DNA of 62,636 bases, counting the filler, from Asterionella formosa (lineage: Eukaryota), in NCBI GenBank assembly GCA_002256025.1. It is 17 parts of 17 records of this genome, joined end to end, with 100 filler letters (N's around TTAATTAATTAA, not from the genome) between each part and the next. Parts side by side here need not be neighbours in the genome. Positions count along the whole stretch, not along the records: positions 59,065 to 62,636 come from NKIB01014045.1; 16 more parts are not named here. One strand, written 5' to 3'. The translations under genes and the position numbers were made by a program. The notes under the pieces are model-generated. The model saw only the letters and a list, made by a program, of their open reading frames with translations, searched no databases and was not told the origin of the DNA. Shown here piece by piece: positions 13,542-62,636 of the stretch; position 1 is the stretch's first letter, and each line of letters starts with the position of its first letter.

Positions 13542-13588
13542 GGCTTCGATCTCGTCATTGAACCGGTATTTTCTTGTGTGACTATTGA

Positions 13589-13692
13589 TTGTATTTGTTG
13601 ATTTGTATAGTCGTTTACAATGATGTCAATATTGCCGCCAAGCAATGCTTTTCTTGTACTAACGCGCTTTGCTACATTTCTACTACGAGTTC
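13589..13692 (+). repeat. ~100-bp dispersed repeat, second copy at 56821-56924
   Basis: TTGTATTTGTTGATTTGTATAGTC...CCAAGCAATGCTTTTCTTGTACTAA...TCTACTACGAGTT is present in both places. Confidence 0.9.
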
Positions 13693-24862: not shown

Positions 24863-25816
24863 TCATTTCAGTTCCAATAGATCACGAATCTTTTGTTTCA
24901 GTTTACCTCCACCAATAGTATCATTCATGGAATAATATTCTTCAATTGTGACCATTCCATTTGCTAGTATGGGTTCTGCCATGACTTCTTTGTAGGCTGT
25001 TTCATTTGCTTCTAAATAGCGAACTCGCTCCAAGGCTAGCTCAGGTTGTGCAACATGATAGTAAATGAAGGACTTGGCATTAAAGATCTTAAAAACATCC
25101 AAAGTGCCCCAATAGATGGGAATGCATCCACCTAAAAAAGCCATTTGAATCTTTTCCGACACATACCCATTCATTTTTGTATTTTCCAAAACAAGGCAAA
25201 ATCTGTAGTGTTTGAATGCCTTAAAATTATATAGAAATCCATCACGTTTGCCTAAAGTATCAACCTTGGTAACATTGGCATATTTTTTAGTGGGACATTT
25301 TCCGCCTTGATGTACTGGCTTTATTTTGGACAATTGGAGGAAGGCCTTGTCGCGATGGGGATGACAATTGTTTGCAACATATATTAAGAAATGCTCCTTC
25401 GTTGAAACGGCTTTCAACTTGGGATCCAATATCGTTTCTCGTACTCCATTGTCATAATATACCATATATAACAATCGAGAAATGGGAAACAGCTGCATCT
25501 GATGTGGTTTCGAAAGGTTCTCGCTGATAACGAGTTGATAGGTTGTTTCGCTGGCAAGATCAATTGAGTCGGGCTCCCCAGTAGCATAGAGAATTTTGCC
25601 TGGAAAGTTACGTTCAGTACCGTTTTTGCATGGGCCATGAACAGAGTGGATCAATAAATCACCCGAGGTTGGGGTTGACACACTCCAGTTCAACTCTTGC
25701 TTGTGACCATACTCCGGAAAAACATGCCCTTCCCAACCAGAAGGATTCCAACCACAAAAATAAAGAGTTCTCTTGCCTTCAACCTGCTTCTCCTTCTTGG
25801 TTTCAGTGTACTTCCA
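24863..25816 (-). CDS. Alpha-1,3/4-fucosyltransferase (GT10), 5'-truncated at the contig edge
   Basis: GT10 signature YRFCLVLENTKMNGYVSEKIQMAFLGGCIPIYWG. The frame stays open from the stop up to the contig end at 25818. Confidence 0.92.
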   Translation of the reverse strand, partial: WKYTETKKEKQVEGKRTLYFCGWNPSGWEGHVFPEYGHKQELNWSVSTPTSGDLLIHSVHGPCKNGTERNFPGKILYATGEPDSIDLASETTYQLVISENLSKPHQMQLFPISRLLYMVYYDNGVRETILDPKLKAVSTKEHFLIYVANNCHPHRDKAFLQLSKIKPVHQGGKCPTKKYANVTKVDTLGKRDGFLYNFKAFKHYRFCLVLENTKMNGYVSEKIQMAFLGGCIPIYWGTLDVFKIFNAKSFIYYHVAQPELALERVRYLEANETAYKEVMAEPILANGMVTIEEYYSMNDTIGGGKLKQKIRDLLELK

Positions 25817-25918
25817 AANNNNNNNNNNNNNNNNNNNNNNNNNNNNNNNNNNNNNNNNNNNNTTAATTAATTAANNNNNNNNNNNNNNNNNNNNNNNNNN
25901 NNNNNNNNNNNNNNNNNN

Positions 25919-28900
25919 CAGCTTCTTGCACTTCAGCTTTTGATAAATGAGTCTTCATTGCAATCAGAATCATCGCAATTCCTCCTGCATCAGCAATCAT
26001 CACCCTGTTTTTGTCATTATTGTAAGACAAGACAAAAATTGTTCCGCAACAAACTTCTTGCACAAAAAAGATGGATGAATGAGTCATCATTGCAGACAGA
26101 ATCAAAGTTATACCTCCTTCTTCATCACAAACACAATTGTACTGTCACCTCCTGCTGCAGCAATCATCACCTTGTTGTTTTCATTATTATCAGCCAAGTT
26201 CGAAAGTGCTGCACAACAAAGGTATTGAACATTAGAATTGAATGAATGAGTTTTCATCGCAGACAGAATTGTAGTGATACCTTCTGCTTTAGCAATTGTC
26301 ACCTTGTTGTTGTCATTATTGTAAGACAAGACAATAAGTGCTCTACAACCAGCTTCTTGCACAACAAAATTTTGGATGAATGAGTCTTCATCGCAGACAG
26401 AATCAAAGTTATACCTCCCTCTTCAGTAATCGTTACCCTGTTCTTGTCATTATTAACAGCCAAGTTGCTAAGTGTACCACAACCATACTCTTGCACATCA
26501 TCATTGGGGGAATGAGTCTTCATTGCAAACAGAATCGTAGTGATACCTCTTGCTTCAGCAATTGCCACCCTGTTCTTTTCATTCAAAGCCAAGTTCTGAA
26601 GTGCTGCACATCCATAGTGTTGCATATTGATATTATATGGATGACTTTCCATCCGAGACACAATCATAGCAGTACCTCCTTCATCATTAATCATCACCTG
26701 GTTGTTGTCATTCTCAGCCAATTTCCAAAGTGCTGCACAACCATACTCTTGCACATCCGCCCTGGAGGAATGAGTTATCATAGCTTCAAGAATTGTAGTG
26801 ATACCTCCTGCTTTGGCAATCGCCATCCTGTTCTTGTCATAATTCACAGCCAAATTCTGAAGTGTTGCACAACCATTTTGTTGCACATCGGCATTACTCG
26901 GATGAGTCTTCATAGCAGAAAGAATCATTGCGATACCTCCTGCATCAGCAATTGCCACGCCAACGTCCTGAAGTTTACTAATGATATCCGCCCAACAACG
27001 ATGGCGCTCTTCTGGATTTCTCTTCAGCAATCTTATAAGCAGAGGTTTCATGGGATTCCAGTCATTGTTGTCCCGCACAAAGGTATCGACCTTTTTAACA
27101 CAATCTTCGTCACTCCAATTTACTATTTTCTTTAGCTCGTCCAGCGATGATACTTCTTCACGAATTGTCACAAGAAAAAGTTGACCACCAGTGCAGAGAT
27201 AATAAAGAAGGACTCCAAAGCACCACATGTCATATTGGGAACTGACTTTAACTCTATCTGTAGCAACCTGACCTATGTGCTTATTGTACTCAACAGCAGC
27301 CTGTTCGGGAGGCAAGTATCCAGAGCTTGTTTGCTTCTGACCAGCCTCTTCCAAGCCAATTAATGCCGCATTGTCAAGATCGATTGCAGCATATCCAACA
27401 CCCTCACCACAAGACACAAAATTTGGAGCCTTCACATCTCCGTGCATAACATTACACTCTTCATTAAGAAACTTAAGGCACTTGGCAATTTGGATTGCAA
27501 TGTAACGCACTGCATGCACGTCCTTGCCTGCAATGTTTTGACGTGATATAACATCACTGAGGTCATTCTTATTCCCACAATCCATGACTAGGAGATGATT
27601 GAATTCAATGTCTCCTTGTTTCCATTCGATTGTCTGGTTACATTCAAACTTAGTATGCGGATAAGCAGATGTATTCAGCCCTTTCTTGCTGTCTGTATAT
27701 GCAGCTCTCACAGCAATTACAAATTGGGTTGCACCAACTTTGCTCCTGATCTTGTACCGCTTATCCAATTCACGCAGGAAGGCGGAACTGTCTGTAAAGA
27801 ACTTGAGAGCTACATTGGTTTCTTTTGTGTTTTCAGATTTATCATTAAATTCTGTTCCAAAATAAACTACACAGCTATCTGACAAATGCTTCTTCTCCTG
27901 TATTTGATATTTTCCTAGAAACCTTCCGTATTTATCACCCCACTCTTTGAGCTTGACAAGCTTGGACAACTTTGCCCTATCAGCAACCTTTTGCCATGTC
28001 TCTTTTTTAACTTGAGCAATGGACTGAAACGACGCTACTTTCGTTGCGCTATGTTTACAGATTGAGATTTCCAGCTGATCCTGTTCTTTGGACCCTCTCA
28101 GCTGTTCCTCTATCTGGAATAATATATTGGCCGCATCACCAGTTCCAAGATCCACCAAGATTTCCAAAACGGTCCAGTTAGTTACTGGTTCGTGATTCAA
28201 ATCGAGGAGTGGGAGAGTCCTGCTTCGATCAAATTCATTGATGGCGAGCACCCAAAAGAAAAAGCCCAGCGGCCCTGGAATGGAAGAAAAGCTCCACCTC
28301 TCTGGAACTTTCTTAGCTTGGGGTGTGTATAGCATGCACAATTGCTTGAGGTTGTCAACGTCATTTAGGGATGCACACAAACACCGCAAAACCTTATACC
28401 AAATTTCAATAGGACTGGACAGTTTATTTTGCAACATGTACTGTTCGATAGACAGATTGCCATCTCCAAAATCAAGGGTTGCATATTTCTTTATCGATTG
28501 AAGGAGCCTGGAAACACAATATTTAAATGGACTTAAACTCGTTTCATTATCAAGAGTGTTCGTCGCATCTGGGTGTTTCTTAATCAAAATACAGACCACC
28601 TCAAAATCAGGATAATCTCCTTGTTGCAAAGCGAGAAGAAGAGGTGACTGCAGGTTTGGAGTGCCATAGTTTGCAACTGAATCTGGGTATTTTATTATGA
28701 TCTGCTCGATCTCTGGAGCTTTCTCACCTCGAAAAATTGCCAAATGAAGTGGAATAAAGGGCATTTTCATGGAGTTAATGGCATTGGGATATTTGTCCAC
28801 AATAGCTTGGATGGATTCAAGTGATACTAGCTTTTCCTCTCCTAGACCACGGTCAAGAGGAGTCTCACCATCGTTGGATTTTCTTGTCACCGCTTCAGGG

Positions 28901-29511
28901 CAAGCTTCCAAAAGGGCATTTATAATTTCCACTGGTGCCCGGACTTTCATGCCAAGGTGCAGTGGAGTGTTACCCTTGTCATCTTTCATTGTTGTGACAT
29001 CAGGACAGGCATCCAAAAGGGCCTTGATAACCACCACATTGGCCCCTTCTTCTATTCCAAGGTGCAACAGAGTGTTTCCATGGCAGTCTTGCACCTTTGC
29101 AGCTTCAGGACAAGCTTTCAACTGGGCTTCAATATTATCCACCCTGATCAGGGTTGTTTCCTCTAAGATCAGGGCTGCTGCTACATACCTGTAACATTGA
29201 AAAACATTATCATCAAAGTTCTCCGAGTTGAGAAAGTCCTTGCTTCTTATCTGAACTGCTCTTTGGATTTTATTAAGTAAGCTATCACCAATTGAATTAC
29301 TGTTGAGATCAAGTTCAGTCAAGACAGTATTGACCTTGAGAGCCTCTGCAATGGCCTTGGCTCCGTCATCACCAATTGAATTATCATAGAGATTAAGTGT
29401 AGTCAAGACAGTATTGACCTTGAGAGCCTCTGCAATGGACTTGGCTCCGTCAACACCAATTGAATTACTCATGAGATTAAGTGTAGTCAAGAAAGGATTG
29501 ACCTTGAGAGC
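25919..29511 (-). CDS. Multidomain LRR - ankyrin - protein kinase - armadillo repeat protein; partial at both ends, distal ARM repeats frameshifted
   Basis: 28-aa RI-type LRRs (LTTLNLYDNSIGDDGAKAIAEALKVN), ankyrin repeats (GNTLLHLG, GNTPLHLG, GETPLD), a kinase (VALKF, VMHGDVKAPN, IDLD, GYLPPE, DMWCFGVLLY) and ~43-aa ARM repeats (GGITTILSAMKTH...VQEYGC.AL.NLA). The main ORF is 26299-29511; ARM repeats continue in other frames to 25919. Confidence 0.9.
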
Positions 29512-32500
29512 CTNNNNNNNNNNNNNNNNNNNNNNNNNNNNNNNNNNNNNNNNNNNNTTAATTAATTAANNNNNNNNNNNNNNNNNNNNNNNNNNNNNNN
29601 NNNNNNNNNNNNNGGGCAAGTAAATTTTTCTTCTCTGCACCATTGCTTGCCAACTGTTGGCAATGAGCTGGATGATGTGGATCAACAATCAACAACACCA
29701 GTCCGAACCGCTCTTCAGAAAAACGAAGAATTAAGGTGGTTCATAGACTTGTAGCATAATACCACAATTCTGCCAAATGGATATGTGTTCCCACCATGTG
29801 TGGAGTCTGCGCCACCTCTGTTGGCGTACTGCACTGGAAACCTTGCTTGAGTCGCGAGCTCCCCGGGTAGTGTTTACTGTTTGTTCCATCCTGCTTAGCA
29901 TGTGGCCTGTACAGATGTTCGAGTCACACCATAAGCAAGTTATGCTCAAGGTGAAGCAGAAATACCACTGTAAACTGCTACTCAATAGTCCAATGGATAC
30001 TACAATACCCGGTACATAGGTACTCTCTTGCAGTGGCGCATATGAAAAATCTGCGTTGATATTTTGCATTTCAGGAAAATGAAAGACTGCACGGTGTAAA
30101 TGTTTTACGCGATATCTCCTCATTTATGATCAAAACATTGACCGGTATACTAAAGTTATTATCATTCACTCTGGACGATCATATAAAAATACGCTGTTCC
30201 TCTGACGTCAATCCCACAAACATTTTCATACATACATAGACTGATAAAGCTAATTATGATGGTTTAGTCGAATGATTCAAATGAGCGGGACGAAGAAGTG
30301 CGTGGTGGCCGGTCATGACAAAACAGTTCTTTTTTAGTGGAAGAGTAAAGTGTTTTGTACGTACAGTTATACAAAATAATGCATGGAGTAATATTATTGC
30401 ATGCATTTGCTTATTTTAGGAGGAGAAGTAAATGCATGCAACCCAACCCAACCCAACGCAACGCAGCTTGCAGTTAAGTCTGGTGTCCCTCTACATATTA
30501 ACTACTCCAGTACCAGCAAGTTGCAGTCATTTTGCTTAAAAAAACAATTTAATAACTTCCAGGTAGCAGGTATATTATCATCCTTGAACACATCCTCACA
30601 TGATGCACTGCTGGCATGGACTAGAAGACAAGTCGTGGATCCTTTATGATTCTTCAGATCATTTTCGGCTTAACTCATGGTTCCTTGAGTATTTGGTTGC
30701 GGTTCTCCAGGCGGATGATTGTCAAAGTGCTTCCGACTAATGAAGATGTCATTGTTGGACTACCTACTGCAGCCAAACCACTTTAATTGCATCCATGATT
30801 CATAAGAAGTACCCTTTGATAAACAATTGTTGGAGAGCAATGGATTGTCTGAAACTCACATTCATGTCATCCAATTGGAAGATGTGTCAGAACAGTGTCC
30901 AACGTTCAACCTAAACCAATGCCCCCGACTCTGTAGGTTGCGGCGGGCCTTTCGAATTGTTGGTGGTTGATTTCACCTGCTATTGATACCCACAGTTGTC
31001 CTTTTTGTAACTCTTTGTACGGTTTCACTTGCATTGTGACGCGACGAATTACTGCCATTGTTCCTTGATGAAAGATGAGAGACACCAATCAGAGAGCCAC
31101 CAGAGGCATCAGCCCGGCTGCCTTCATCGGCATCGTCTTCTTTCTCTTCCTCATCTTGGGATTGCAACTCTTGTTCCTGCTCGAGACGGCGACGTTCTCG
31201 CAGCCTTGGGGAAGAACAAGGGACACCCTCTCTGGCTGGTCTCCCTTGACCGCTGGAAGAGGATGATGACATCGTCGCAATGATCTGAAACAGAGTATGA
31301 CAACGATGTAAAAAAGGCTGATTGATGTGAACATATAGATGCATATTACCATCAGGTACCTATTTTGGCGAGAGCAAGCCATTTCGGGTATGAGCACGCA
31401 ACACGTCATGAAATATTCCGGGAAATCATATGTATTCATACATGGATAGTAGACATATTTCTAACTGTAAAAAATTTGTTCAACACAAACAAAAAATTTG
31501 GTGTAATGAGCACAGTAATTTATGTAATAATACACGTTGTATAATAATATTTTTTAATTTTGAAGTGCGCCCAGCATACCATGCATGATAATTTCTTCGC
31601 TAAAAGTTTGAAAAAATTTAGTTTTTGCTGATATCAGGTCTAAAATAATTTGCTCTGACAACGATTCTATATCGAGGTGGTTGCGAACCGGAGTTACCAA
31701 ATTTGGGCAACACAAACACAAATTTTGGGGTAATGAGTACAGTAATTTATGTTATAATACACATGATATAATTTTTTTTAATTTCGAAGCGCAGCGCCCA
31801 TTAATTTATTTTAAATTATTATCTGTTTCTTAGCCCATTCCTACTCCCCTTTTTCAAGGCAAGTATTATTGTGCTGCCTGCCAACAAGACCTGTGCTTCC
31901 TTACTAGTTTCGTTAGCATAGGTGAGTCCCCAACCACCTTTCACAACAGGTGGTCGTCTTATCAAGCTATTGTTCTTTGTCATTGCGTCCAATTGTGGGT
32001 TTCTGATTTTACTGTTTTAGCTATATCTAAACAAATGTAGTGGCTACAATTAAAATCGTTTACAATACGCTAGCGACTATTCGATTCTGTCTATTTGACT
32101 AGTATACAATAACAAATGAGGGAGAGATGACATGATCACTGTCATCAAATCATCAGCAATTTGTATCAAAATGCAGATGCATGAGGAGGACCCGCCCATT
32201 ATTCTTCGAACCATCTATTCTCTACATACATACGAAGTGGGATACCAGGTGTAACAGTAGAACAACGGCAACTTGAATTCAATTATATGGAATGCGCAAC
32301 CACGAAAGTGGTGATGATGGGACGGAAGAAAACGACGGTATGCTCGTTTTGATGAAATCACCGTTAAATATCAGGAGATTTCGTCCATGTAGGTGCAACA
32401 ACTGTAGAAAGTATACCGAACTACAGTTATTCTATTCCAGTTATAATTATGATAGTGACAAGTTGTGTTCGGTTTCCCGCAAATATTTGGGTGGCCGGCC

Positions 32501-34661: not shown

Positions 34662-36217
34662 CGGTGGTACCAGTCAAAAACTGCTTAAGACCATTATGAA
34701 CTGCTTAGAACACCATAACGGGGTAATCTTACATTTTGAACTGCAAACTTTTCAATTTTAACAATACTGCAATATTTACTATCAACAAGTCATTTGTTTC
34801 ACGCATCTACATATAAGATGTCTCAACGCCCGATCGATGTTGCGAAGAAGTACCAAACCTCGAGCAAGTACATAGTTATTTGAAAGTCTCTAGATAAGGA
34901 TTTAGTAAAGCTTGTTCTAAACAACAATGTCAGAGAAGTAGACGCTAGAAAGGCTAACGGTGGAGGAGTTGTTTTACCAAGTTTTGCTATTGCTAGCTAA
35001 ATTATTATTTGCAGACAAAGTTGACACAGTAACGTGGCTAACAAAAGATATGGTGAAGTACTCTTTGAAGAAATTGAATAATGACAATAAAGATCTAGTA
35101 GTAGGGGGTTTGAATTCTATAGTGCTATTGGATTGTTCCCCAACAGAACGAATCGAAACTAGCAGTACACTTACCTTTGGAACCAGAGCCACCACTACTG
35201 CATCGTCCACTTTGACACCAGTTACATGTGATGCAGATAAACACAGCAGTGTGAGAAACAATAATCTAGCCGATAGACCGGAACAGCATGAGACTCAACA
35301 ACAAACACAACTTTCCGGTGAAAAGGGGGGAGGACAAATACAAACGAAAAAAGAGTTCCATTGAGACCATGAAACTTGCTTCAGCACCACAAGCATGTGG
35401 TCGGCATCAATCTTGATCGGATGGCTTGCCAGTTAGCGCTATTGGCGATCGCGCAAAATAAAAGGTATATGGCAGGACTTCATGTGGCGGCTGGACGCTT
35501 TAAACTGGGAACGGAAGCACTGGACGATATGAGTAGGAGAAAAGAAGAGCAGAGTAGAAGGAGAGTGAGAAAGCGAATAAGAAAGTTATGGATTATAAAG
35601 TAACATTGAACGAGGTGCAAGCGATCAGAGCACTCAACAAACGGCCACACAAATGGACGGCGGCGCAAACAAAAACAATCGTGTTGGGGTACAAACGAAT
35701 TGGCGATGCACCATGCATAACCTGCAACGAAACAACCACTGCTTACCGAGTATGTTGATACAATCAGAGGTGGCGATGCACCAGTCCCAGTTGCCGTAGC
35801 AATACTGCCACCATCGGCCTCAGCTGCAGAGGATGACGAGGATGCAGTTGTGATTATGGAGTGACTTCTGTGTTGTTTGCACAATGAATCGACGTCAGTT
35901 GACACCAGATATTTGAGAAAATATGGAAAACGAGGTAATATTTTCTAACCGTTTACCATCAAAAATACTAATACATGAAGAAATATATATGAATGGCTTT
36001 AGACCACTAAAATGCAAAATAAAATCAACGACTTAAAATGTTCGATATCGCAAGATATATCCTTCCAATTGTTGAAGATTCATTTATCTAGTACTTGCAT
36101 GCATTAGTTGACCTCTATTCAAAGGGTTTTAAATGGGGTCGGCTGAACATTTTTCTAATTTTAGTCCCAAAACGGGGTAATATGGTGGTCTTAAGCAGTT
36201 TTTGACTGGAACCACTG
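34662..36217. mobile_element. 1.56-kb non-autonomous TIR DNA transposon
   Basis: Left end CGGTGGTACCAGTCAAAAACTGCTTAAGACCA (34662-34693). Reverse complement of the right end CAGTGGTTCCAGTCAAAAACTGCTTAAGACCA (36186-36217). 30 of 32 bases match. No transposase motif and no clear TSD. Confidence 0.85.
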
Positions 36218-36289
36218 GTACTGTGTGCTTGTCATCAACATACCGGTAGCTATGACTAACAGTCGACTCAGCAGATGATTTCATTCTGC

Positions 36290-36558
36290 TATAATGAGCT
36301 GGACAGTATAGACCATTTGGAAGACCAATGGTTTGAATCGAATGATCAATGGTTATAGACTTATGATCAATAAGTGTGAGATAGACATGGGTCTATCTAT
36401 GAATTTATGTTCTGGTGACAAATGCAAACTCAAACTGAACAAACCTAACTAGTTTGCTTAGTAACTCACAATAAGAATCTAGAAACAAAATAATGTCTTG
36501 TTCTATAGTATTCTTTGTCTAACGATAGATCTATCAACTAAAAGGTAATACTTTAACA
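36290..36558 (+). mobile_element. Partial solo/3' LTR of the Copia family at 61900-62636
   Basis: Collinear with 62020-62320 and ends AAAGGTAATACTTTAACA. It is not followed by the palindrome or by gag. Confidence 0.85.
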
Positions 36559-37373: not shown

Positions 37374-37737
37374 GCAAGAAAGGTTGCTCAATACATTTCC
37401 GACAATGAAGACAGAAGGCAAGTTTGTAAGAAAGATATCAGTGTGAATGCTATTGTAAAAGCAATGTCACACGTTGTACTAGAAAGTACAAAGTCGTCAA
37501 TCTGTTCTTACCCTGTACAAATTATGAAGTCCCCTCGTCTGAGTGAGAATCCAGCCGACATTTTGCCAGCGAAAGTATTCAAGCTGACATGGCTGCCGAC
37601 TGTCTAACTGCATCCCTACTATGCACCTGGAGACGGATTGGTACCTCAAGTGAAAGCAAGAAAGGTTGCTCAATACATTTCCGACAATGAAGACAGAAGG
37701 CAAGTGTGTATAGCATTAGGAACATAGCATTAGGAAC
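37374..37737 (+). repeat. 50-bp perfect direct repeat (37374-37423, 37656-37705) plus a 14-bp tandem duplication at the gag breakpoint
   Basis: GCAAGAAAGGTTGCTCAATACATTTCCGACAATGAAGACAGAAGGCAAGT occurs twice. ATAGCATTAGGAAC occurs twice at 37710-37737. Confidence 0.9.
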
Positions 37738-38488
37738 ATAGCGAGCCTTGAGGTAGGTCCAAGCAAGGAATGCATCGCCGTCTTGATGATTCTTTGTCTT
37801 TGCTTGGTTAACCAAACCAAACGCAATCCCAGTGCAACTCATAATCAGGAGCTGGATTGCGCGATCGTTCATCTCGTAGATCTTCTCAACATCGTCGTTG
37901 TCTGTAGTTTCGTAGACAGCATCGCTGCATGGATTGGTATCCTTCATGTAGGCATTCTTGAATCCTCTTGTCTTGGCTAGTGCAAGTGTCTTCACACTCC
38001 AATCATGCCAATTGGCGTCCTAGCCATCAAACTTCACAAGGCGAATGGTCTCACCTTTGTCTTCAGTCATGTTGCAAAACGAAGTTGATCCGCTTGCAAG
38101 CGTGTTAAATTCTTCTGCAGTCTGACTGCAATGCTAGCTCTTTCTAGGCAAGCTCAGTGTATTAAAACCTTCTGTTCTAATCCCACCTTATTGTGAGCTT
38201 ATTTGATCTATCTTGTAATCTTTCATATGAACAATTATTAAGGTTCTCTTCCCAAATTTGTATATAGATATTCAATGTGTTGTTAGACATTCAATTCTCA
38301 ACTGACAACTCAACTCCACTCACTTAGTAGAACAATCGTGAATATTCAATGCCATCTGCATTGCATGTATACCTTTCCTTCATTGAAATATTGATTACTT
38401 AGAACATTCTCCATTCGAATATTTACCTTGGTTTGCTGATATAGTTCTTGGCAATCAATGCTGTTCAAATTCTCACAGCATTTCAATA
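37724..38488 (-). mobile_element. Truncated Ty1/Copia 5' end: LTR (~38103-38488), 12-bp palindrome (38091-38102) and gag N-terminus from 38070
   Basis: MTEDKGETIRLVKFDG*DANWHDWSVKTLALAK...QLLIMSCTGIAFGLVNQAKT...DAFLAW..LKARY (Copia gag/UBN2-like). The LTR ends ...TTTAACA and shares CTCACAATAAG with the 61900 LTR. The LTR 5' boundary is approximate. Confidence 0.85.
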
Positions 38489-38845
38489 CGGGATTTTGGC
38501 TGGAATATTATTCAAGATTGATTAGTTCGACTGAACTATCGGTACCGGTACCTGTACCAGTAGTTCGAAGTTCATCAAAATCTGGGTATAGCCAGAGTTA
38601 GGTATTTTTAATCTGGGTGCCGATATGGTGACGACTCGTCCATAAACACGCTTTTCTACAAATCTCTGCGACATAAAATAATCACACATGTTACATGTAC
38701 TGTTATTGGTACCTGGTACCAGGGTGGTACATGCAAAAAATTCAACCCCCAGTGCAACCTTTTAAGACCGTAGTGAAAGCTAGTGTACTAGCAGTCAACT
38801 AGCACTGTGTACAAAGGTAAACTACAAAAAACCCTGGTACCGGTA

Positions 38846-41789: not shown

Positions 41790-42730
41790 TGTCAGGCAGG
41801 TGGTAGCAACTGATTGAACAGACGATTTGTTATCTGTTACATCTGACCCACCAACCAAGTCAACATACTTTCATCTTGGAACAGTTTGGCCTCAAGTGAC
41901 AACGACAAACATTCATGAGGATATGGTGTTTCAGTTGGAAATAGCTAACTGTTCTTCAATTTTGAATTGACAAAATTTTGAGCTCCTATTCAGATTTAAA
42001 AATGTTGAAATGAAGTAATTGGACGACTTCCTTTCAATAGTGAATGTTGATTGATTGAGCACTCACTGATGTTGTTGTATGGCTGGAATCATGCGCAGAG
42101 TAGGTCTACCGGTAAATAAACAGTACTCTGGAGCACCTGGTACCAGGGTCGTAGTATNNNNNNNNNNNNNNNNNNNNNNNNNNNNNNNNNNNNNNNNNNN
42201 NNNNNNNNNNNNNNNNNNNNNNNNNNNNNNNNNNNNNNNNNNNNNNNNNNNNNNNNNNNNNNNNNNNNNNNNNNNNNNNNNNNNNNNNNNNNNNNNNNNN
42301 NNNNNNNNNNNNNNNNNNNNNNNNNNNNNNNNNNNNNNNNNNNNNNNNNNNNNNNNNNNNNNNNNNNNNNNNNNNNNNNNNNNNNNNNNNNNNNNNNNNN
42401 NNNNNNNNNNNNNNNNNNNNNNNNNNNNNNNNNNNNNNNNNNNNNNNNNNNNNNNNNNNNNNNNNNNNNNNNNNNNNNNNNNNNNNNNNNNNNNNNNNNN
42501 NNNNNNNNNNNNNNNNNNNNNNNNNNNNNNNNNNNNNNNNNNNNNNNNNNNNNNNNNNNNNNNNNNNNNNNNNNNNNNNNNNNNNNNNNNNNNNNNNNNN
42601 NNNNNNNNNNNNNNNNNNNNNNNNNNNNNNNNNNNNNNNNNNNNNNNNNNNNNNNNNNNNNNNNNNNNNNNNNNNNNNNNNNNNNNNNNNNNNNNNNNNN
42701 NNNNNNNNNNNNNNNNNNNNNNNNNNNNNN

Positions 42731-48040: not shown

Positions 48041-50041
48041 TTGATGAATGGCATAAGCAATATCTGGGCGGGTATTTGCAGTCAGGTACATCAGCATGCC
48101 AATGATTGAATTGTATTGCCAGGTTTCAGTGAACGGATCTCCATCGAAATCATTTTCTGAGGGAGTATTAGTCAATGGTGTATCCACTCCATTACAATCA
48201 GACATGCCAGTTGCTGCAAGGACTTTGTGTCAATTAGTCCGGTTTGAGTGAGATTATATTCCTGCAGTCAAGTTTTTTATATTTGAATTCCAAGAAAGGC
48301 ACCAACTTCTCCTTCATTTCTAAGTGCAAAAGTGTGACGCTGTTCCTTTTCATGGACGCCAAGGCTTTGGATTTTTGCTTCAAGAACAAGTGAGTCCGCT
48401 CCAGCAAATATGGTGTCATCGATATAGCAGACACAAATAATTCCTTGTTTCATGAACAAGCATGGATCAATTTGAGATTGAGTGTACCCATGTTCCAAAA
48501 GTCCCTCCCGAAGTTTCTCAAAGAAGGTGCAAGGAGCTTGACGAAGTCCATATAGATTTTTTAGCAGTCGCAACACTTTATTGGTGCCGGACTTGGGTCC
48601 AAAATGCGAGGGTATTCCAGATATACTTATTCTTTGAGATTGGCTTGAGCAAATGCGTTGGTGTAGTTGACTTGACGGGTTGACCAGCCCTCAGTGAGAA
48701 CAGTTAACAATAGCAAGCGAATGGTAGACAAAAGTAAAACAGGTGCATAGGTCTCGAAGAAGTCAATGCCCTCCTTTTGGAGATCTCCTTGTGCACAAAC
48801 GCGTGCTTAGAAGCGATAGCTAAGGTGTGCCACCTGGGAGCCGTTTCAGTTTGAATACCCATGTTCCTTTTAATACATTGAGGTTTGCAGTTCTTGGCAC
48901 AGATTCCCAGGTACGTTGAAGAATGAGAGTTGCAATCTCTATTTGCATGGCTTTAATGTACTCTTCTGAATTTTCGCCATGGATAGCCTGATGAAACGTT
49001 GGAGAATCAGGGTCATCTTTGCGGCGTGTTTTGGATGCATACACTCGAGGGTCAGTAATGTTGTGAACAACTGTCAAAACAGGTAAGTAATTCTGCTGAA
49101 TATGCCAGTTGTTTCTTGTAGAAATTGTCATGCTTGGTTTGATCCAGCATGGTCAACTATACTTCGTCAATATATTTTGTACAATTATTCTGACCGTCGA
49201 ACTGCTGGCACTGGTGGTGAAGAGTGAGGTGAACTTGCAATAGAATCTGGTATGTGTTTTGTGTGTGCACTATCAGTGCTGAGTGGAATAGGTGCTTTAG
49301 GAGGAGGTATTGGAGCAGATGCTCCCTCTAAAATGCCGATATCTTCTGCTGGTGTTGATGGTCCTTCAGGTGGTAAAGCTGCCGTAATGAAGTGTGTGGG
49401 GTTAAATGTGGTACGAATCCGCTGTTGTCGATGAAGCTCCCTCTGTTTTTGTGCTTGTTCATCTGAAGTGAGCCAGTCGTCTTGAAGATGCATTGGTGTT
49501 TCAGTGTTTGAATCGTTCGGTATGTAGATTGTATTTTCCAGACACAAACCGTCCCAGTATTCAGGAGGGTCTTCATCTTTTCCAATTGACGCCACCGTGG
49601 AGAAACTGTCGTCAAAAACCACAAGATATTGAGTGGTAATACTCCCAGTTAGCAAATTAAGGACCAAGGGGACTTCACTGGAGTGAATGGAGCTCAATCC
49701 AAGGAACACACCTCGTCGTGATCGTGGTTGATATCTAGGCAATTTCTTCCCAGATTGAAGAGTTGGGTCAAGAAATCATTGGACATCCCCAAGTGTGAAG
49801 ATCTCGCAGATAATGTCTGGGAATTGTGCTTCCAGTGTAGAGATCAGCTGGGCAAAAGGAATGATTATTTGGTGTATGATTGTAAAGGTGCACAGTGTAA
49901 GTAACTGCTATAGGCTAAAGTGTGCTGTCGATCCCTCCTTTTCAATGACTGGAAGCATGGAGAATCATTGAGCGTGCCATGTCAGATACTGTTCTAATAG
50001 CCTGTTCTGCTACACCATTTTGATGGTGTGCATTTGTTCCA
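48041..50041 (-). mobile_element. Degenerate Ty1/Copia (CoDi) pol: integrase C-half followed by reverse transcriptase
   Basis: AHHQNGVAEQAIRT, WGCP, PRSRRGVFLG, VVFDDSFSTV (integrase). TWVFKLKR, ETYAPV, KNLYGLRQAP, DPCLF, YIDD, MYLTANTRPDIAYA (RT). IN precedes RT; many stops and frameshifts. Confidence 0.95.
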
Positions 50042-51616: not shown

Positions 51617-53789
51617 NNNNNNNNNNNNNNNNNNNNNNNNNNNNNNNNNNNNNNNNNNNNTTAATTAATTAANNNNNNNNNNNNNNNNNNNNNNNNNNNN
51701 NNNNNNNNNNNNNNNNATGACAATGTCAAGTCAATACCTTTCTATGCTGAACAGGACAATGTGCACAAGCAATATCTGGGCCCAAATGATAGGGACAGTG
51801 ATGACCAAATGAGAACCAGTAGAAGGGTAATAACTGGTACTCCTGGACTGGTACTCCGTACCAGGTACTCTAGCTTAAGTCTGCTACTCTTGGTACCCTG
51901 GTATGCCAAAGGACCGATAATCACACATAGTGAAAGGTCCAGTGATTTGATACGCGCGTTGCTTTGTTTTTCCACTTTTCCCCTCCCCACCATATACTGC
52001 TGAAGGTAAGACATGACCAAGGGTGAAGACTGCCTGCGAGTTTTCTTGTGTTTGAGGCTTGGGAGGCATGATTAGGTTGACCGAATGAGTGGCACTGGAT
52101 CCTCTCGAGTAGGTTCTTAACTAGGCAATTCACAAACCTAGCTATCAGCGCGCTTTTCGCCACTACATTGCCCTTTCAAATAACATTGAAAAACCTATTT
52201 TAGATAGTTTGTAAATTTTAGGGCGTTGTAAATTTTAGGCGAACTAGCCAATTTCCCTTAAAATAAAACATATAATGTATAGTTCTTATGTTCAGTTTTT
52301 GGAATTCGCAATCCTGCAATTGCACTTCATAGAAACACAATTTTACAATTCACGAAAATATGCTCCATTTTGGGACTGCCAAACTCCCTTCAATATTTTC
52401 AATAGCCCATAGATTTGCCTGCCAAAATGGACTTCCGTTTATTTAAGGGAAATGAATTCCTGTTATCTATTGCCCCCTGTGGACTGCCATTTACTTAAGG
52501 AAAATGGATTGCCGAAATTGTAAGAGAGTAGGATGAGCTACGAAAAGGCACAAAATGATGGTTTTCTGTAAAGTGTTGATGGCAATTCCACTATTTACAT
52601 CCCTGCTATCTTCCAGCATGCTACAATTTATACAAACTCTGTTCATTGATGTCTCAAGTAGTACCAATGCTTCATCAAGTGGATCTGGCTGGTTGTCGGA
52701 TAATTTGACTTCTTATGGGATTCATATTGTCGCATTGTGCTTGCTTTGTCACAGTGGCGCCAAAATTTCGGTTCTCCTTTCTGTTGAATTACAAAAGCCT
52801 TTCCGGTCAACTCCTTCTCTAGATTTGATATGTAGTGATTAATCAATTAATGACTGTTCAAAACCGACCTTGATCAGTCATTGGGTATCAAAAATCAAAA
52901 TGTCATGGTAGGTCGAAGTTAGTCCACCATACCAGGGGTACCTTGCCAGCGCCACACACACAATAAATATTCATTTTTACTGGTTGTTTTTATTGGTCCG
53001 TGCGTCTCATCGTATATTTCCATCAAGCACACTGTGTTGTTCTGTGGTTTTTTGGTTTGGGTGTTTCTGTGGTTTGGTTTATGTAACGTACGCCGGCCTT
53101 TCTCCTCACAGTCACACTGACATGCGATACACTACACCAGTTCGGAGTACCACAGGAACCTCCAAGTTGCGGTAATTTTGCTGAAAGTGCTACGTACGTC
53201 GTCGTCCCGGCAATATGGTGATTCCACTTGCAAGTTGATACATGTGTATCTCTTTGACGGCCCTTTGATTAATCAACCGGCCGGCTTGTTGTTCCGAATT
53301 ATATTTAGATTAATCTTATTTTAAGCCTAAATATTGAGACCAATCTGTTTTGCTTATTATGCCATTTGCTTCCATTGATTTTGCTTAAAGTAGTTTTGAT
53401 TTAAGTAGAAATTTTGCTTAATGTGTGATGTCACCATTTCAACCCTTCACTGCCATCAGGGTCAATCTTAACAGAGATAAAAAAAAATGTTGCTTGGCCC
53501 AATTTTTTGCATCTCCCATATTCGGGTGATATGTTGCTTTCAGCAACACATTTTTTGTTGCTCCGAAATGTGTATTTGTGTGTATCGCTGCAGATACAGC
53601 GTTAAGCAACACTAATTTTATAAATTTAACAAATGTCATGTATTTAAATTAATCAAGAAAGACACCATATTTATCTCTAACGCCAACAACAGAAATGAAT
53701 TTTGGGAGGAGGTATTCTCAGCAGCAATTATTATTATCACTAGCTACTCATGGAATAGTGCTTTTCATCACCTGCAAACGACTTGCGCA

Positions 53790-55290: not shown

Positions 55291-57249
55291 NNNNNNNNNN
55301 NNNNNNNNNNNNNNNNNNNNNNNNNNNNNNNNNNTTAATTAATTAANNNNNNNNNNNNNNNNNNNNNNNNNNNNNNNNNNNNNNNNNNNNGCCAAAACCA
55401 TAAGCAAGGATCACAATCCAACCGTTGATACTACCACCATCAGGTACTACGTACCGTGCTACATTCGTTGGTAGTCTCTACCGTGATGATTCGGCTGTGA
55501 GGAATCACATCCTTTTTCCTTCTGGTACTTGACGATGATTGGCGCTTAAATATTATTCCCCATTTTGGCAGCTTGTGAGTGTAACCTCGTGTTTTATGTA
55601 CATGATACGAACATGTATATATTGCAATATCTATCCTATGTTCATATCTGAGTACATGCGATATACTGTGTGTGGTAAACGGAGTATCGCTCCCTTACGA
55701 CCGCCGTCAAAATTAATGTAATTACATATTTTGGAGTAGGTACCTGGTACTATTTACGAAATGTACCATCATCATGCATGAACGGAGTAGAAGCTGTTTT
55801 TATAAATATATAAATACTATTGAGCCAAGAATAAATCATATAGCGGTATGGCTGTTTACGACGATTTTTATTTACATGTGTGCTCGGAGTATGATATGCT
55901 AGTACATAGTTTTTATCATATTTGGACCATCATCACATTTAGGCTACTAAACGAATATAGAGATGAATACCGGTACTTTAAACCAGTAAGTAGGCAGGTG
56001 CGCCAAAGACTGGACTTGAGTCACTCCACACACAGACAGAGACAAACACACCCACAACCCTAAATGCACAACAACATGAATTCCTTGTGTAAAGGAAGTT
56101 GCAGCTCCACCCCATAGTTACAAATTAAGAGGTCTGTTTTTTTCCAAAACATATTTATGATGTACCTCAATCAACATATTACATACAACTAAATAAAAGA
56201 GTAAAGAGCATAATTAGCTTTCACCAACAATACTACAACCAGTCATTGGTTGAGCAACTTAGGGGTAGTAGGTTCTATCTTCAGATATGGTAAGAACCGC
56301 ATTTCTGGAGAGAAAGTGCAGATATGTATTGTAGATTCATAACTATCCCAGAAATAGTCAAAAAAGGGGCCATCAAGCTTTAAAAATATCAACAATACAT
56401 AACTGTATCGTTCACATATTGATTGATTTTACATACCACCGTATGCCCAATTTCGTCCTCACAACTACAATTCTCACTCTATCCTGTCTGCCGTTGCTCT
56501 ATTCGGGCTTGCAATAGGTAACGTTTGTCTTTCTTTCTTCCCATATTTTGCTGCTTGTTATGCTAGTTGAAGTGGACTGGTGAGTACAACACACAGTGAA
56601 ACACTGAATGTGGATTGTAGATCCTATTTATCGATGTTCCGATTTGATTGGTGCTTCCATGGTCCATTTTGATCGCTTCCATCGTTTTTTGTCATTCCCT
56701 TCTGTCGTTTTGTTTCGATTGTATCTATCTACGACATGTGAATCAATGTATTTATCAATGACTACTCTTTGAAGATGTGGTAGTATTGTGCCGCAAGATG
56801 TGGTATTGTGCCGTTGTTAATTGTATTTGTTGATTTGTATAGTCATTGACCATGATGTCAATGTTGCTGCCAAGCAATGCTTTTCTTGTACTAATGCGCT
56901 TTGCTACTTTTCTACTACGAGTTTGTATCGGGTCACATCATGGTCACTGCTCCTGGGACTGTAGATGATGTTGATACAACTGAGCTGTATGCCCTTGAAA
57001 ATTACTTCTAGATCATTTTCGATGGTGATCCAGACACCTTTTACTATGATGAAGGCGATTATTTACTTGAGGAGGCAGCAGAAGGTGAAGTGATGCCTTC
57101 AGAGCTTCTCAAACTTGGAAAGTGTGCGTACTACTGGCTGGCGCAGTTCTTGACACTGACAACATTGCCATCCCAGCTAGATTTGTTGATATTGGTGTTG
57201 ACAATGCCCCAGCATCTGAAAAGGTTTTTTCACAATGAAGTTGCAAAAA

Positions 57250-58964: not shown

Positions 58965-61899
58965 NNNNNNNNNNNNNNNNNNNNNNNNNNNNNNNNNNNN
59001 NNNNNNNNTTAATTAATTAANNNNNNNNNNNNNNNNNNNNNNNNNNNNNNNNNNNNNNNNNNNNGGATTCCAAAAGGCCCCGGATAAATTTGAATTATCG
59101 ATGCAACTTATTAATATTGGACAGAGGGAGGCAGTAGGTCTAGTTGGAAGAGATTTCCGGTATAAAACAAATGTAGCAGTACCTACCGGTACGTACCGGT
59201 ATATTATCCGGACCGTAGATAGTACTACCGGTATACTCAATATAGTAGCCAGTAAAAATTGCGTTGTTCATTCTCCAGAAACAGACAACGTGGCACCGGA
59301 CAGGCGCAAAAATTTTCATGTGTACCAAAAAACGGCTTAAATTCAGCACGACTTGGCGATCTCCCAAACCGCAAATAAAACGACAAAGCAGCAAATGTCC
59401 ATACCGTAAAACATGGTGTCTCATATGCCTCTAGTTACCAATGACACAACAACTAATGGTTGCTTTGTTGTGCGTGGTTTCTAACAAGCCCTGTTCCACG
59501 AAGGATTCATATTTCTGTTCCATTTTAATGTGGTAGGCACTATTGCTATGAAGGTAAGTTGCAAAGTCATAAACAGTTTCTTAACAGAAATTTTCGACAA
59601 ATCTATGAACACACTTTTTTCAAAACACATTTTCCTGCAGTAATGTCAACAATGAGGGATAAATGAAGACTTGATTTTTCTCTGTTGAAAAGCTGGTTCG
59701 ATGGTGGATGTGATTGTTGTGGGAAGAGTTTCTTTCATTGTAGAAAACCAACAATTCTGTTTTTCCTTGTTGATTCTATTCCGACATCTCTTACCACCAA
59801 CTCCAGTTTCTTCTTTAAGAAAAACACCACTGGAGCACAGCATGTTGCTGTTGTTGATGCTATTGATGTGTTAAAATAAAGCACAGCAACGTTTAAAAAA
59901 GAATATAAAATCAAGTTGAATACATGCCACCTCAATTCTAAAAATACTTAACATGAATGAAAATAGTAAGTAAACTCATCGCTACTAGATTTCAATCGTT
60001 TGGAAGTTGGTTTGAAACCAGTGTACACTTCCTTTGGGTCCTTCTTTTCCAAGAGGGATCAAACCCCCTTCAAACAACAGTCAGGAACTTCGATTTGAAC
60101 GCCTTCTTTGCCAATGCTCAACCGAAAAATCTGATCAAAAACTTGAAAAGAAGTTTGCGGTCTCTTGATGGCGCAATATCTTGATCGTTCATTCTTGAGT
60201 CGACTTCATCCTATCAGCACTGACATTCAGAGCAACAAAAATCACAGCATTCACAGACTTCCGACTCTACAATTAACCGGTCTTGGTCTGTAGGACTACT
60301 ATTAGTATGACTGTTCTTGAATTTGGCCATCGCCGTTGTCATCATGATGATGTGACATTTCTCTATAATGTTTGTTTTTCGTTTCTTAATCATCAACCAA
60401 TGTTTGCCATGCTGTCGATCGTACTATTTAGAATCTATAAATTTCGCGATGAAGAATTTGTATAGTATACATATTTAGCAAATCAGAAGGAATGAGTCTT
60501 CATATTCTTGTCAATTTCGACGGGTTTAAATATTTCAAACGGAATCATGTCATTCAAAAATTATCTCTTAAAATTTCAAATCCCTAGGCAAAAATCAATG
60601 CATTGCTTAGGGTTGCCGAAAATCCCTGGAACTGTGAAAGTTTATGTACTAATTATGAATAACAATGATGCCATTTGAAATATTTGAATCAGTGGACGTT
60701 TGTGCCTACATACATAGTTTCCTTCTCGAATTCGCTATATATACATAAATAAATTCTTCATCACTCGAAGTATCTATAACCTTTACTCATATGAACAAAC
60801 ATGTCTACTATATGACATGGTGGCTCCGCAAATATTTGTTGATGATCCTGTAGAATACCCAAAAGACACAACACGACGGCCAATTCATCTACCGGTACAA
60901 GCACCGTTACCTTGTAGTATCCAGGTACTCCAGTACCAGGTACAGTACAGTGATAATACAAGATACAGCATGGTACTCCGAGTATAGGTGAACACGAGAG
61001 GAAATGTTACATGTGTATCCAATGTGGCAGGTGTGAGGTTGCAGGGCATCGCAAACCGGGCAAATCAAATAGACTAAGTAATTCACATTTGACCATTCAA
61101 AATATGTATAATTAAACTGGCAATCACGGTGGAATTTGTTGTACAGGAGATTTTACGACCAAAAATTGAATCACACAACTCCTATTCGGATAATGACTTT
61201 TCGTCACTAAGTGATTCTGATTCCGATACTTTGGCGACGGTTGAAAATGGCGATTTTGCTGATTTTTTGGAAGATGATTGCTCAACATTGGATGCGTCTA
61301 AAGGATAAATAAATACTTAGTTCAAATCTGGTCTATAGAGTCAGAAGTAAACTTCTGGCGAGAAGTGCAGAACGAAACTTTGTTTTTTAAACTGTGCCAA
61401 ATACTGCAAAACAAGGATACCAGTATTTTTTTCTTCCTATCATTGCCACTTTCATAGCTCCGTAGAGCAAAATCGAACAAAGTTGAAGGTCCTCTAATGC
61501 TAGTTTCTTCTTCATATGCTTGATGAGAAAAGCTGGTGGCAAGAAAAATAGGTGGCAAAAATGAAAATCGAAAAAACACCATAAAAATTTCAAACAAATT
61601 TGCCGACATTTAATCTTTTAAATCTTTCTATATGTATTGCAACTTGGAAATGTATCTTTGCGCAAGGCGCACATAAGGAAATCAACCCGGGGAAAATTGT
61701 GAGAGTCGAAATTGTCCTGGATAAATTTGAATTATCGATGTAAGCATTATTGGACCAAGGGACGAGGACCAGTATAAGTTACTCCGTACTCCGTGAACCA
61801 GCTACCACCGGTAATCTACCAGTGAATAGTTGCCTATTTCGGCTATGAATTATACCGTTACCGGTTCTCTTGTATCAGAAGCTAGTACATGCATATATA

Positions 61900-62320
61900 T
61901 GTTAAAGTGAGCTCATCTACGTAGTTAGGACTCGGAGTCAAACGAGTCAAACGATTCGAATGAGTCCACTTTGATGTACCAAGCTCTCATCAACCACACA
62001 TTATACTTTGCTACTCCGACTATAATGAGCCGGACAACATAAGCTATTTCGGAAGACCGATAGTTTGAAATGAATGATCATGGTTAAATACCTATGATCA
62101 GTAAGTGTGAGATAGACATGGGTCTATCTATGATTGTATGTTCCTAGAAATGCAAACAGCATTTGGAGAATAGTTCGTTTGTTTTGTTCAAACAGAACAA
62201 CCTAAACTAGATTAGTAAACTCACAATAAGAATATAGAAACGGAAAGAGAAACGAACGTCTCTATCTATAGTCTTCTTTGTCTAACGATATAGATCTATA
62301 CAAAAGGTAATACTTTAACA
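61900..62320 (+). mobile_element. Complete 421-bp 5' LTR of a Copia element
   Basis: TGTTAAAGT...ACTTTAACA (9-bp perfect inverted termini, TG...CA). Homologous to the LTR piece at 36290-36558. Confidence 0.9.
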
Positions 62321-62349
62321 CGTTTATAAACGGACTTAAGTGTTTTAAC

Positions 62350-62636
62350 ATGTCTACAGAAATGTCTGAAGAGAGCATGAGGCTCATCAAGTTTGATGGC
62401 AACGAAACGAACTGGTACCAGTGGAGCGTTAAAACGCTCGCTCTGGCGAAGGCAAGAGGATTCCGAACGATGTACTCCAAGAACCACAACCCGTGTTCTG
62501 ACGAAGAGTACGAAGTCGAGACAGACAAAGGAGTCAGGGCTATCTACGAGGCCAACGACAAGGCGTACCAGTTGCTCATCATGAGCTGCACCGGAATCGC
62601 CTTCGGACTCGTAAACCAAGCCAAAACGAAAACGTT
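62350..62636 (+). mobile_element. Copia gag N-terminus, open to the window end
   Basis: MSTEMSEESMRLIKFDGNETNWYQWSVKTLALAKARGF...YEANDKAYQLLIMSCTGIAFGLVNQAKTKT. Clear homologue of the 38070 gag, with no stops. Confidence 0.9.

Follow-up and report, generated by a model that had tools for sequence, protein, structure and literature searches.

A covarying 12-nucleotide palindrome at the primer-binding-site position of a Ty1/copia retrotransposon family

Almost all retroviruses and long terminal repeat (LTR) retrotransposons prime reverse transcription from a host tRNA. To our knowledge the exceptions are self-priming of the Tf1 type and a palindromic site in the fungal GalEa elements that is unexplained. 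In Tf1 approximately 11 nt of the transcript 5' end are complementary to a non-palindromic primer-binding site (PBS), and the element's own RNA is released by RNase H; the primer is copied into the PBS, and hence primer and PBS co-evolve. Copia and Ty5 have half-tRNA PBSs. These pair with the anticodon-arm region of tRNA-iMet or tRNA-Ile and do not vary within a lineage. The dimer-initiation site (SL1) of human immunodeficiency virus 1 (HIV-1) and the PAL sequences of Ty1 are 6-nt loops or separate palindromes that are present alongside a tRNA PBS. Here we describe a 12-nt palindrome at the PBS position of a Ty1/copia family that is represented in a stretch of 62,636 nucleotides, filler included, from Asterionella formosa (assembly GCA_002256025.1), which we call the window, and compare it with these systems.

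The fungal GalEa elements are Copia elements described as being without a PBS (Donnart et al. 2017, PMC5445492). File 3 of that paper gives CHSeq1 as 9 nt that are palindromic together with the last A of the LTR, with CTGATCAGT in 25 rows and CTAATTAGT in 14 rows. A second sequence, CHSeq2, is an inverse-complementary copy lying 2-41 nt downstream with a fixed A/A mismatch, and is missing in 5 of the 45 families listed there (PMC5445492). In the portion of the text drawn upon here the authors report that a complement in U5 was not found and that no model fitted (PMC5445492). The relevant passage of PMC6317226 names Tf1, Tf2, Maggy and Skippy among the self-priming elements, with self-priming predicted for plant Tcn1 and the Ty1/copia TAR lineage, and gives Osser, Bryco, Gymco-II and Bianca as users of half tRNAs. 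The PAL palindromes of Ty1 are stated to act together in the extract cited from PMC6844567. For diatom Copia elements, the main text of Maumus 2009 contains 'tRNA', 'PPT' (for polypurine tract) and 'palindrom' 0 times and 'PBS' solely as a buffer; priming is untreated in that main text. In the full-text literature, most subscription journals lying outside this scope, the only reports found of such a palindrome in Copia elements, whether from diatoms or elsewhere, are the fungal GalEa paper and a bivalve TRIM paper that cites it.

The palindrome CGTTTATAAACG lies near the right end of the window, at 62321..62332 on the plus strand, in what we shall call copy A. It occupies the PBS position, following the 5' LTR (61900..62320, plus strand; 421 nt, TGTTAAAG...CTTTAACA) with zero spacer, so that the plus strand between 62306 and 62334 reads GGTAATACTTTAACA|CGTTTATAAACG|GA. 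A leader of 17 nt without TGG (62333..62349, plus strand) connects the palindrome to the gag ATG at 62350, from which the gag-pol open reading frame (ORF; 62350..62636, plus strand) is open for 95 aa and runs off the window. Copy B is on the minus strand. Its LTR (38103..38509) ends with GAATTTAACA at 38103; it lacks the first ~28 nt by comparison with the LTR of the metagenome locus L003, to which it is 98.3% identical over 407 nt. The minus strand then reads GAATTTAACA|CGCTTGCAAGCG|GA, with the perfect 12-nt palindrome CGCTTGCAAGCG at the PBS position (38102-38091; 38091..38102, minus strand). The gag fragment of copy B (37726..38070, minus strand) begins with ATG at 38070, is interrupted by an in-frame TAG at codon 17 and breaks off near 37730. 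By tblastn over the window there are no gag copies besides A and B, and these two are 66% identical over 92 aa. Between the palindromes CGTTTATAAACG and CGCTTGCAAGCG there are four differences, at positions 3, 6, 7 and 10. Each is a transition, and together they make up two compensatory pairs, 3/10 and 6/7.

A preliminary description of this DNA had placed a palindrome followed by GA directly after the 5' LTR at 62321..62332, and the sequence it gave is correct to the base. The diverged relative in which it had seen two compensatory pairs is copy B, and the differences are as described. It had also pointed to an LTR ending at 36558 that lacks the palindrome; we find none after that end, where the unrelated sequence CCATGGAG follows. 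Its assignment of the element to a Copia lineage is borne out by the proteins described below.

The 95-aa gag start of copy A was used as a query, giving 86 candidate proteins and among them 14 longer ones with E <= 0.001. Four of these 14 relatives, of 1392-1509 aa, have Retrotran_gag_2, zf-CCHC, rve and RVT_2; the Pfam families of the full-length relatives are PF14223, PF00098, PF22936, PF00665, PF25597 and PF07727. In the relative P0002 the motif CX2CX4HX4C is found at 236, the protease DTGA at 418, the integrase HH motif at 610 and KARLVV at 1129. There is thus a copia-type gag with a zinc knuckle, and the order is protease, integrase, reverse transcriptase (RT). The LTRs have TG...CA ends and are preceded by a PPT. 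By all these features the element is a Ty1/copia LTR retrotransposon.

More members of the family were obtained by scanning metagenome contigs with an alignment of ten gag N-termini. Of 196 stretches with the peptide pattern nine encode relatives, and eight of the nine loci include DNA upstream of gag (L009 is without that region). With the two window copies this gives a sample of 10 copies in 5 distinct lineages, with gag 50-67% identical to that of copy A. The end of the LTR, the site and the following two bases are TTTAACA-CGTTTATAAACG-GA in L002, whose site and gag N-terminus are as in copy A (lineage A), and TTTAACA-CGCTTGCAAGCG-GA in L003 (lineage B). L004 has TTGAACA-TACTTGCAAGCG-GA and is placed in lineage B2, a relative of B with an LTR 75-78% identical. 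L005-L008 form one lineage (C) with TTTAACA-CGTTTTAAAACG-AA, and L010 (lineage D) has TTTAACA-CGTTTATAAACA-GA. The site starts at the first base past the LTR-terminal AACA in 10 of 10 copies. The LTRs of different lineages can be aligned in short islands only, these being the last 7-11 bases and the CTCACAAT motif discussed below.

Three variants of the site, CGTTTATAAACG, CGCTTGCAAGCG and CGTTTTAAAACG, are perfect palindromes, and the sites of the remaining two lineages are imperfect. Comparing variant C with A, the central AT has become TA, which is a mirrored pair of transversions; the caveat in the preliminary description that all changes are transitions therefore no longer holds. In the alignment of the five lineages 28 of 30 pair cells contain a standard pair (93.3%). 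Pair 3/10 is U-A in three lineages and C-G in two, while pair 6/7 is A-U in two, G-C in two and U-A in one, and both pairs covary. The observed pairing was reached by 5 of 500 shuffles and the covariation score by 4 of 500, although with only five lineages, few and related, these figures describe the pattern and are not probabilities. Sliding the register by 1-3 columns reduces the pairing to 30-50%. Judged from these alignments, it is self-complementarity and not sequence that is conserved at the site, as the preliminary description had proposed from two copies; the third variant is in accord with this.

The copies with perfect palindromes have reading frames open to the end of the locus, of 305 codons in L002, 927 in L003 and 927 in L006. 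In lineages A, B and C, the copies with long open frames (again L002, L003 and L006) are those with a perfect palindrome. In L010 an A stands in place of the last G of the site, a change at a CpG, and the reading frame closes after 48 codons.

There are 59 perfect 12-nt palindromes in the window compared with 19.3 +/- 5.0 in 50 shuffles, approximately 1 per kb, and a single palindrome thus means little alone. Some of these belong to simple repeats or adjoin masked runs of N. A near-palindrome after TTTTAACA at window position 34764 was without gag or LTR context, and was set aside as a chance occurrence. As a control for the position we took chance matches to the flanking pattern AATTTAACACGNTTNNAA in prokaryote genomes. 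None of the 115 matches has gag nearby, and just 1 of 115 is a perfect 12-nt palindrome; among the free pairs, complementarity is seen 18 times at 1/12, 29 at 2/11, 32 at 3/10 and 22 at 6/7. On this comparison of sequences, a palindrome at the same position across all recovered family members is beyond chance.

We have searched the region around the palindrome for the known kinds of PBS. A PBS starting with TGG, of the tRNA 3'-end type, is present in 0 of 10 copies, and it is CG or TA that directly follows AACA. The leader from palindrome to gag ATG is 17-40 nt across the lineages. It contains no TGG in A and B, and in C and D TGG occurs solely within the ATGG start context; no other PBS candidate was found between the LTR and the gag ATG. 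For a complement of the Tf1 type to the first 20 nt, the longest Watson-Crick match in the LTR is 5, 5, 6 and 7 nt in A, B, C and D respectively, and the fraction of 500 shuffles having a complement at least as long is 1.0, 0.97, 0.94 and 0.56. RNAduplex energies for the palindrome against the LTR are not below those of shuffles. Self-priming of the Tf1 type, with its complement of ~11 nt at the start of R, was rejected on this basis. Pairing between the 5' half of the palindrome and the bases just upstream of the CTCACAAT motif was also rejected, since its 5-8 bp per lineage are too short and at chance level. A second downstream copy like that of GalEa was not found in the next 250 nt, where the best duplex is ordinary relative to 300 shuffles in four of four lineages (0.26-0.77). 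There are 0 tRNA genes in the window and 0 in the nine metagenome loci, and 0 Rfam matches in the window.

We consider it very probable that in this family the tRNA PBS has given way to a self-complementary element under selection. Of the preliminary description's claim that a palindrome stands instead of a PBS, the position, the lack of a spacer and the failure to find a PBS of the 3'-tRNA or Tf1 type are all upheld, as is its statement that the LTR holds no complement of the motif, the longest being 5-7 nt and at the level of shuffles. The remaining part, in which the packaged RNAs would prime one another, keeps the standing of a proposal.

Predictions of RNA pairing favor two strands over one. 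Taken as isolated 12-mers, the sites are predicted to fold as hairpins at 0 to -2.5 kcal/mol and to form homodimers at -10.6 to -21.1 kcal/mol. A hairpin, with its loop of at least 3 bases, cannot constrain the central pair 6/7, and yet this pair covaries; this argues for a continuous two-strand duplex. The site is self-complementary including its two central bases, so that its natural partner would be the same site on a second genomic RNA. No RNA is known that is complementary to the site, other than a second genomic RNA with the site on it. In the minimum-energy folds the site is located at the tip of a hairpin formed by the U5 end and the leader in four of four lineages. The U5-leader stem is symmetric about the site, at distances of 4/4, 3/3, 8/8 and 8/8 nt, and is reached by 0 of 1000 shuffles in B and by 5 of 1000 in C. 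In the predicted homodimers of a 72-nt segment palindrome pairs with palindrome and flank with flank. Here ddG is -11.6 to -16.1 kcal/mol, compared with means of -5.4 to -9.1 kcal/mol for segments with only the palindrome scrambled.

The reading we favor is that the 12-nt palindrome is a functional replacement for the tRNA PBS, linking two RNAs in a dimer and so anchoring tRNA-independent minus-strand priming. On the sequences and models at hand we give this a probability of roughly 0.4. It starts from what we observe, that is the position of the site, its conservation and covariation, the absence of the PBS types tested and the predicted ability to form a homodimer. In the genomic RNA the palindrome would lie directly 3' of U5, and in some lineages it would be displayed between the paired U5 and leader strands. 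Two co-packaged RNAs would form a 12-bp duplex at the palindrome, which would be the dimer linkage. The element's RNase H would then cleave on the 3' side of the palindrome, as happens in Tf1, though here in trans. From the 3'-OH of the RNA so cleaved, synthesis would proceed across U5 and R with the other RNA as template, generating minus-strand strong-stop DNA without a tRNA. Subsequently the plus strand would copy the palindrome of the primer, and a mutation arising in either half would within one cycle produce the mirrored change in the other. Mirroring by replication would explain perfect palindromes that differ by mirrored changes, transversions included. Taken as a whole, with two packaged RNAs pairing at a palindrome on the U5 border, one priming the other, and half-site mutations being mirrored, this would be a third start mode for reverse transcription in LTR elements. 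We put forward that broader proposal tentatively and regard it as rather unlikely to hold in every part.

A number of points weigh against this reading. In addition to the small and related sample of lineages, the number of pairs changed on both sides (2) is matched by 256 of 500 shuffles. In L004 the site departs from the others at its first two bases, giving one mismatch and one wobble (U-G at pair 1/12), and the frame of this locus is open for 927 codons with its ATG lost; a perfect palindrome is therefore not strictly tied to an open frame. The U5-leader stem is no better than shuffles in A (0.51) and D (0.25), and the gain from homodimer formation is modest, 2 to 10 of 60 scrambles being equal to it. 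Cleavage on the 3' side of the palindrome would separate the site from the body of the RNA, so that an uncut template RNA or further assumptions would be needed. A very short Tf1-like primer may exist, as the test of the LTR was made without a fixed transcription start, and host tRNAs and other small RNAs lie outside the comparison. L004 and L003 are in tandem on one contig with LTRs just 75-78% alike, which suggests a chimeric assembly, and metagenome contigs may thus be chimeric at larger scale. Finally, dimer formation in vivo, the cut, the priming and the mirroring are steps that we infer from sequence.

The palindrome might alternatively be a signal for dimerization or packaging only, in the manner of a retroviral dimer-initiation site or the Ty1 PAL, with priming performed by something else such as a host small RNA pairing with part of the site. 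A dimer-initiation site would fit the palindrome itself, the homodimer predicted for it and, in B and C, its presentation by flanks that are predicted to pair, and there is a second palindrome 21-32 nt before the LTR end, several palindromes being described as cooperating in Ty1 in the extract cited from PMC6844567. Known dimer-initiation sites, however, adjoin a separate PBS, according to the portion of PMC5445492 used here, while in this family the leader of 17-40 nt has no other PBS candidate and the site abuts the LTR in 10 of 10 copies. A role confined to dimerization is in our view doubtful, though it deserves to be taken seriously. If instead the site were bound by a two-fold symmetric protein, be it Gag, integrase or a host factor, with the half-site co-evolving with the protein, then the mirrored half-sites CGTTTA, CGCTTG and CGTTTT would also appear compensatory, and the conservation of the flanking CG and GA/AA would be consistent with it. 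Yet three half-sites in one family demand repeated co-evolution of the protein, and a host factor would not tolerate them. Two of the changed pairs are transitions that can be passed via a G-U wobble, as expected for RNA pairing, and L004 has U-G at pair 1/12; protein binding as the explanation is improbable.

Fold-back of a single RNA, self-priming after a cut 3' of the palindrome with the aid of the U5-leader stem, would make this a hairpin site of the GalEa type. The fungal site is proposed to act as a hairpin in the text cited from PMC5445492, and in each of the four lineages our minimum-energy fold has the site at the tip of a longer hairpin. But the 12-mer alone folds at just 0 to -2.5 kcal/mol, a covarying central pair is impossible in a hairpin, and no downstream equivalent of CHSeq2 was found in the next 250 nt in four of four lineages, so we think fold-back unlikely. 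It is harder still to believe in an ordinary half-tRNA PBS, of the copia, Ty5, Osser or Bianca type, that is palindromic by accident. In plants half-tRNA priming is confined to Ty1/copia lineages (PMC6317226, in the passage cited), and the comparison did not extend to host tRNAs; against this, three variants need three tRNAs, each with a loop-less perfect 12-nt palindrome, and no site starts with TGG. The arms of tRNA have loops of at least 7 nt with an odd center, and by cloverleaf geometry the even register that covaries would be a misfit for the anticodon arm. That an AT-rich ancestral palindrome without function has persisted by chance or hitch-hiking can draw on the frequency of perfect 12-nt palindromes, ~1 per kb or 59 in 62.6 kb, but is scarcely credible. 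Gag is 50-67% identical and the LTRs align in short islands, yet the site and the last 7 bases of the LTR are kept and the changes are mirrored, and the control yielded 1 of 115.

If priming between two RNAs is true, the same principle would explain the palindromic site of the fungal GalEa elements, and Copia lineages using it would be immune to host defenses that are aimed at a tRNA-type PBS. Host small RNAs derived from tRNA 3' ends are described in the passage cited from PMC7472051, and tRNA independence would remove their target. The covarying central pair provides the first sequence-level argument for a two-strand duplex over a hairpin. The variants are natural compensatory mutants with which the question of priming, and of its coupling to dimerization, can be addressed, and the model is simple and testable.

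The limits of the LTR rest on several lines of evidence. In the contigs of L002, L003, L005 and L010 the order is pol 3' end, PPT, TG...CA LTR, palindrome and gag, and their PPT|TG junctions fix both ends of the LTR. The junction reads GGAACAAGGAGAG|TGTTAAAG...TTTAACA in lineage A (L002), and GGAACAGGGAGGA|TGTCAAGA in lineage B. Contigs of four sequencing runs were aligned to 61850-62636. Loose ends before 61900 (X5, X9, X8) have the pol end and PPT sequence, while those past 62320/62321 (X9, X16) have several unrelated flanks; independent insertions thus confirm where the LTR begins and ends, to within one base on the 3' side. No differing letters were seen at 62273-62429 among the rows listed for contigs of the four runs, although contigs drop rare variants and this does not imply invariance. 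Contigs with pol 3' end, PPT, a single LTR, palindrome and gag are found for L002, L003, L005, L007, L008 and L010, and may be tandem arrays, one-LTR circles or the result of assembly collapsing two LTRs.

Within the LTR, comparison of lineages reveals a motif CTCACAATAA at 62220..62229 (plus strand). The form (A/G)CTCACAATA / CTCACAAT is kept in the LTRs of lineages A-D, 94-116 nt upstream of the palindrome, where the LTRs are otherwise diverged, and the homologous place is found in L003, L005 and L010 as well as at window 62220-62229. The CTCACAAT motif may be a transcription start or a poly(A) signal. The second perfect 12-nt palindrome, TATAGATCTATA, is at 62289..62300 (plus strand) in the presumed U5. 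Its counterpart in the solo LTR described next is GATAGATCTATC at 36524-36535, with the outer pair altered on both sides relative to TATAGATCTATA. Near this place there is an inverted repeat in the other lineages, TGCAGTC-A-GACTGCA in B, AGATCTTA-AAAG-TAAGATCT in C and GTACA-AACG-TGTAC in D.

The LTR at 36070..36558 (plus strand) is a relative of lineage A. Its 5' limit is probably at TGTTGAAG, it ends in GGTAATACTTTAACA, and over 36289-36558 it shares 73% identity with the L002 LTR. No purine-rich sequence precedes it, and hence this is not a 3' LTR beside a PPT. In a check for a 5-bp target-site duplication its flanks, CCAAT and CCATG, match at 3 of 5 positions; the 3' end of copy A is outside the window. 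A different Copia RT fragment is present at 48286-49041 (minus strand), 30-35% identical to P0002 and with an RVT_2 match at E 2.6e-13.

Metatranscriptome runs X8 and X16-X20 (n=6, freshwater or estuary) contain at least half of the LTR-gag words sampled, and two RNA-library contigs, X8 record 21 and X16 record 5, span LTR, palindrome and gag. This hints that the family is expressed in nature, although carry-over of DNA is possible. Searching viral contigs with the gag protein and the gag alignment gave L001 as the sole match and no true relative; L001 was rejected because it is a repeat-rich protein sharing the peptide YEANDKAYQ but without gag. The gag alignment found no relative in genome contigs.

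The window is eukaryotic nuclear DNA, with ORFs having RING, fucosyltransferase and leucine-rich repeat (LRR)/ankyrin/kinase/ARM domains, and freshwater and algal samples make up most of the sequencing runs containing its DNA. At 24863-29565 (minus strand) a fucosyltransferase-like ORF is beside an ORF of ~1070 aa with LRR, ankyrin, protein kinase and ARM repeats, the latter containing tandem repeats of 129-132 nt and 84 nt. A dispersed repeat family links 12617-13697 with 52000-52922 and 56806-56929, two copies being 76-88% identical over ~1 kb, and the ORFs near it have no Pfam matches. Paired masked runs of 44 N occur approximately every 3.7 kb in the window, and there is one run of 573 N at 42158-42730; some of the 12-nt palindromes counted above fall between such runs.

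How does this site compare with the known systems? Like the half-tRNA elements, it is a Ty1/copia site directly 3' of the LTR that does not start with TGG; unlike them its sequence varies, and self-complementarity alone is kept. With Tf1 it would share tRNA independence, a primer from the element's own RNA released via RNase H, and co-evolution of primer and PBS. It differs from Tf1 in that the best complement in the LTR is 5-7 nt, at chance level, and in that the proposed pairing is between two RNAs and not within one. Like HIV-1 SL1 and Ty1 PAL, it is a self-complementary sequence of the 5' leader able to pair two genomic RNAs, and is predicted to lie between paired flanks in B and C. In contrast to both, the palindrome occupies the position of the PBS, and no separate PBS was found in the leader.

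The comparison with GalEa, as that group is presented in the parts of PMC5445492 cited above, is the closest. Both are Copia elements with TGT...CA LTR ends, without a TGG-type or Tf1-type PBS or a complement in U5 having been found, and with a conserved palindrome at the 5' LTR junction whose variants differ by a mirrored pair; in both the mechanism is unexplained. The differences lie in the site, the proteins and the host. Our palindrome is 12 nt and wholly inside the element, compared with 10 nt including the last A of the LTR in GalEa, and its sequence is different. It has no downstream inverse copy like CHSeq2, and comes in three variants, one with a central transversion pair. P0002 and P0003 have KARLVV, HVDD/YVDD and CX2CX4HX4C (C2C4H4C) and no CQPEA, where GalEa has KSRLVI, QTDD, C2C4C4H and CQPEA, and the host is not a fungus. 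By both CHSeq2 and the protein motifs the family is set apart from the fungal clade, and we regard the two as parallel cases or as distant relatives. The Conserved Hairpin Site of GalEa is a precedent that lowers the novelty of our finding, the principle being already known and not a new category. Nonetheless, a second group of Copia elements, in a non-fungal eukaryote, has a palindrome at the same position, and the solution is thus not a fungal curiosity.

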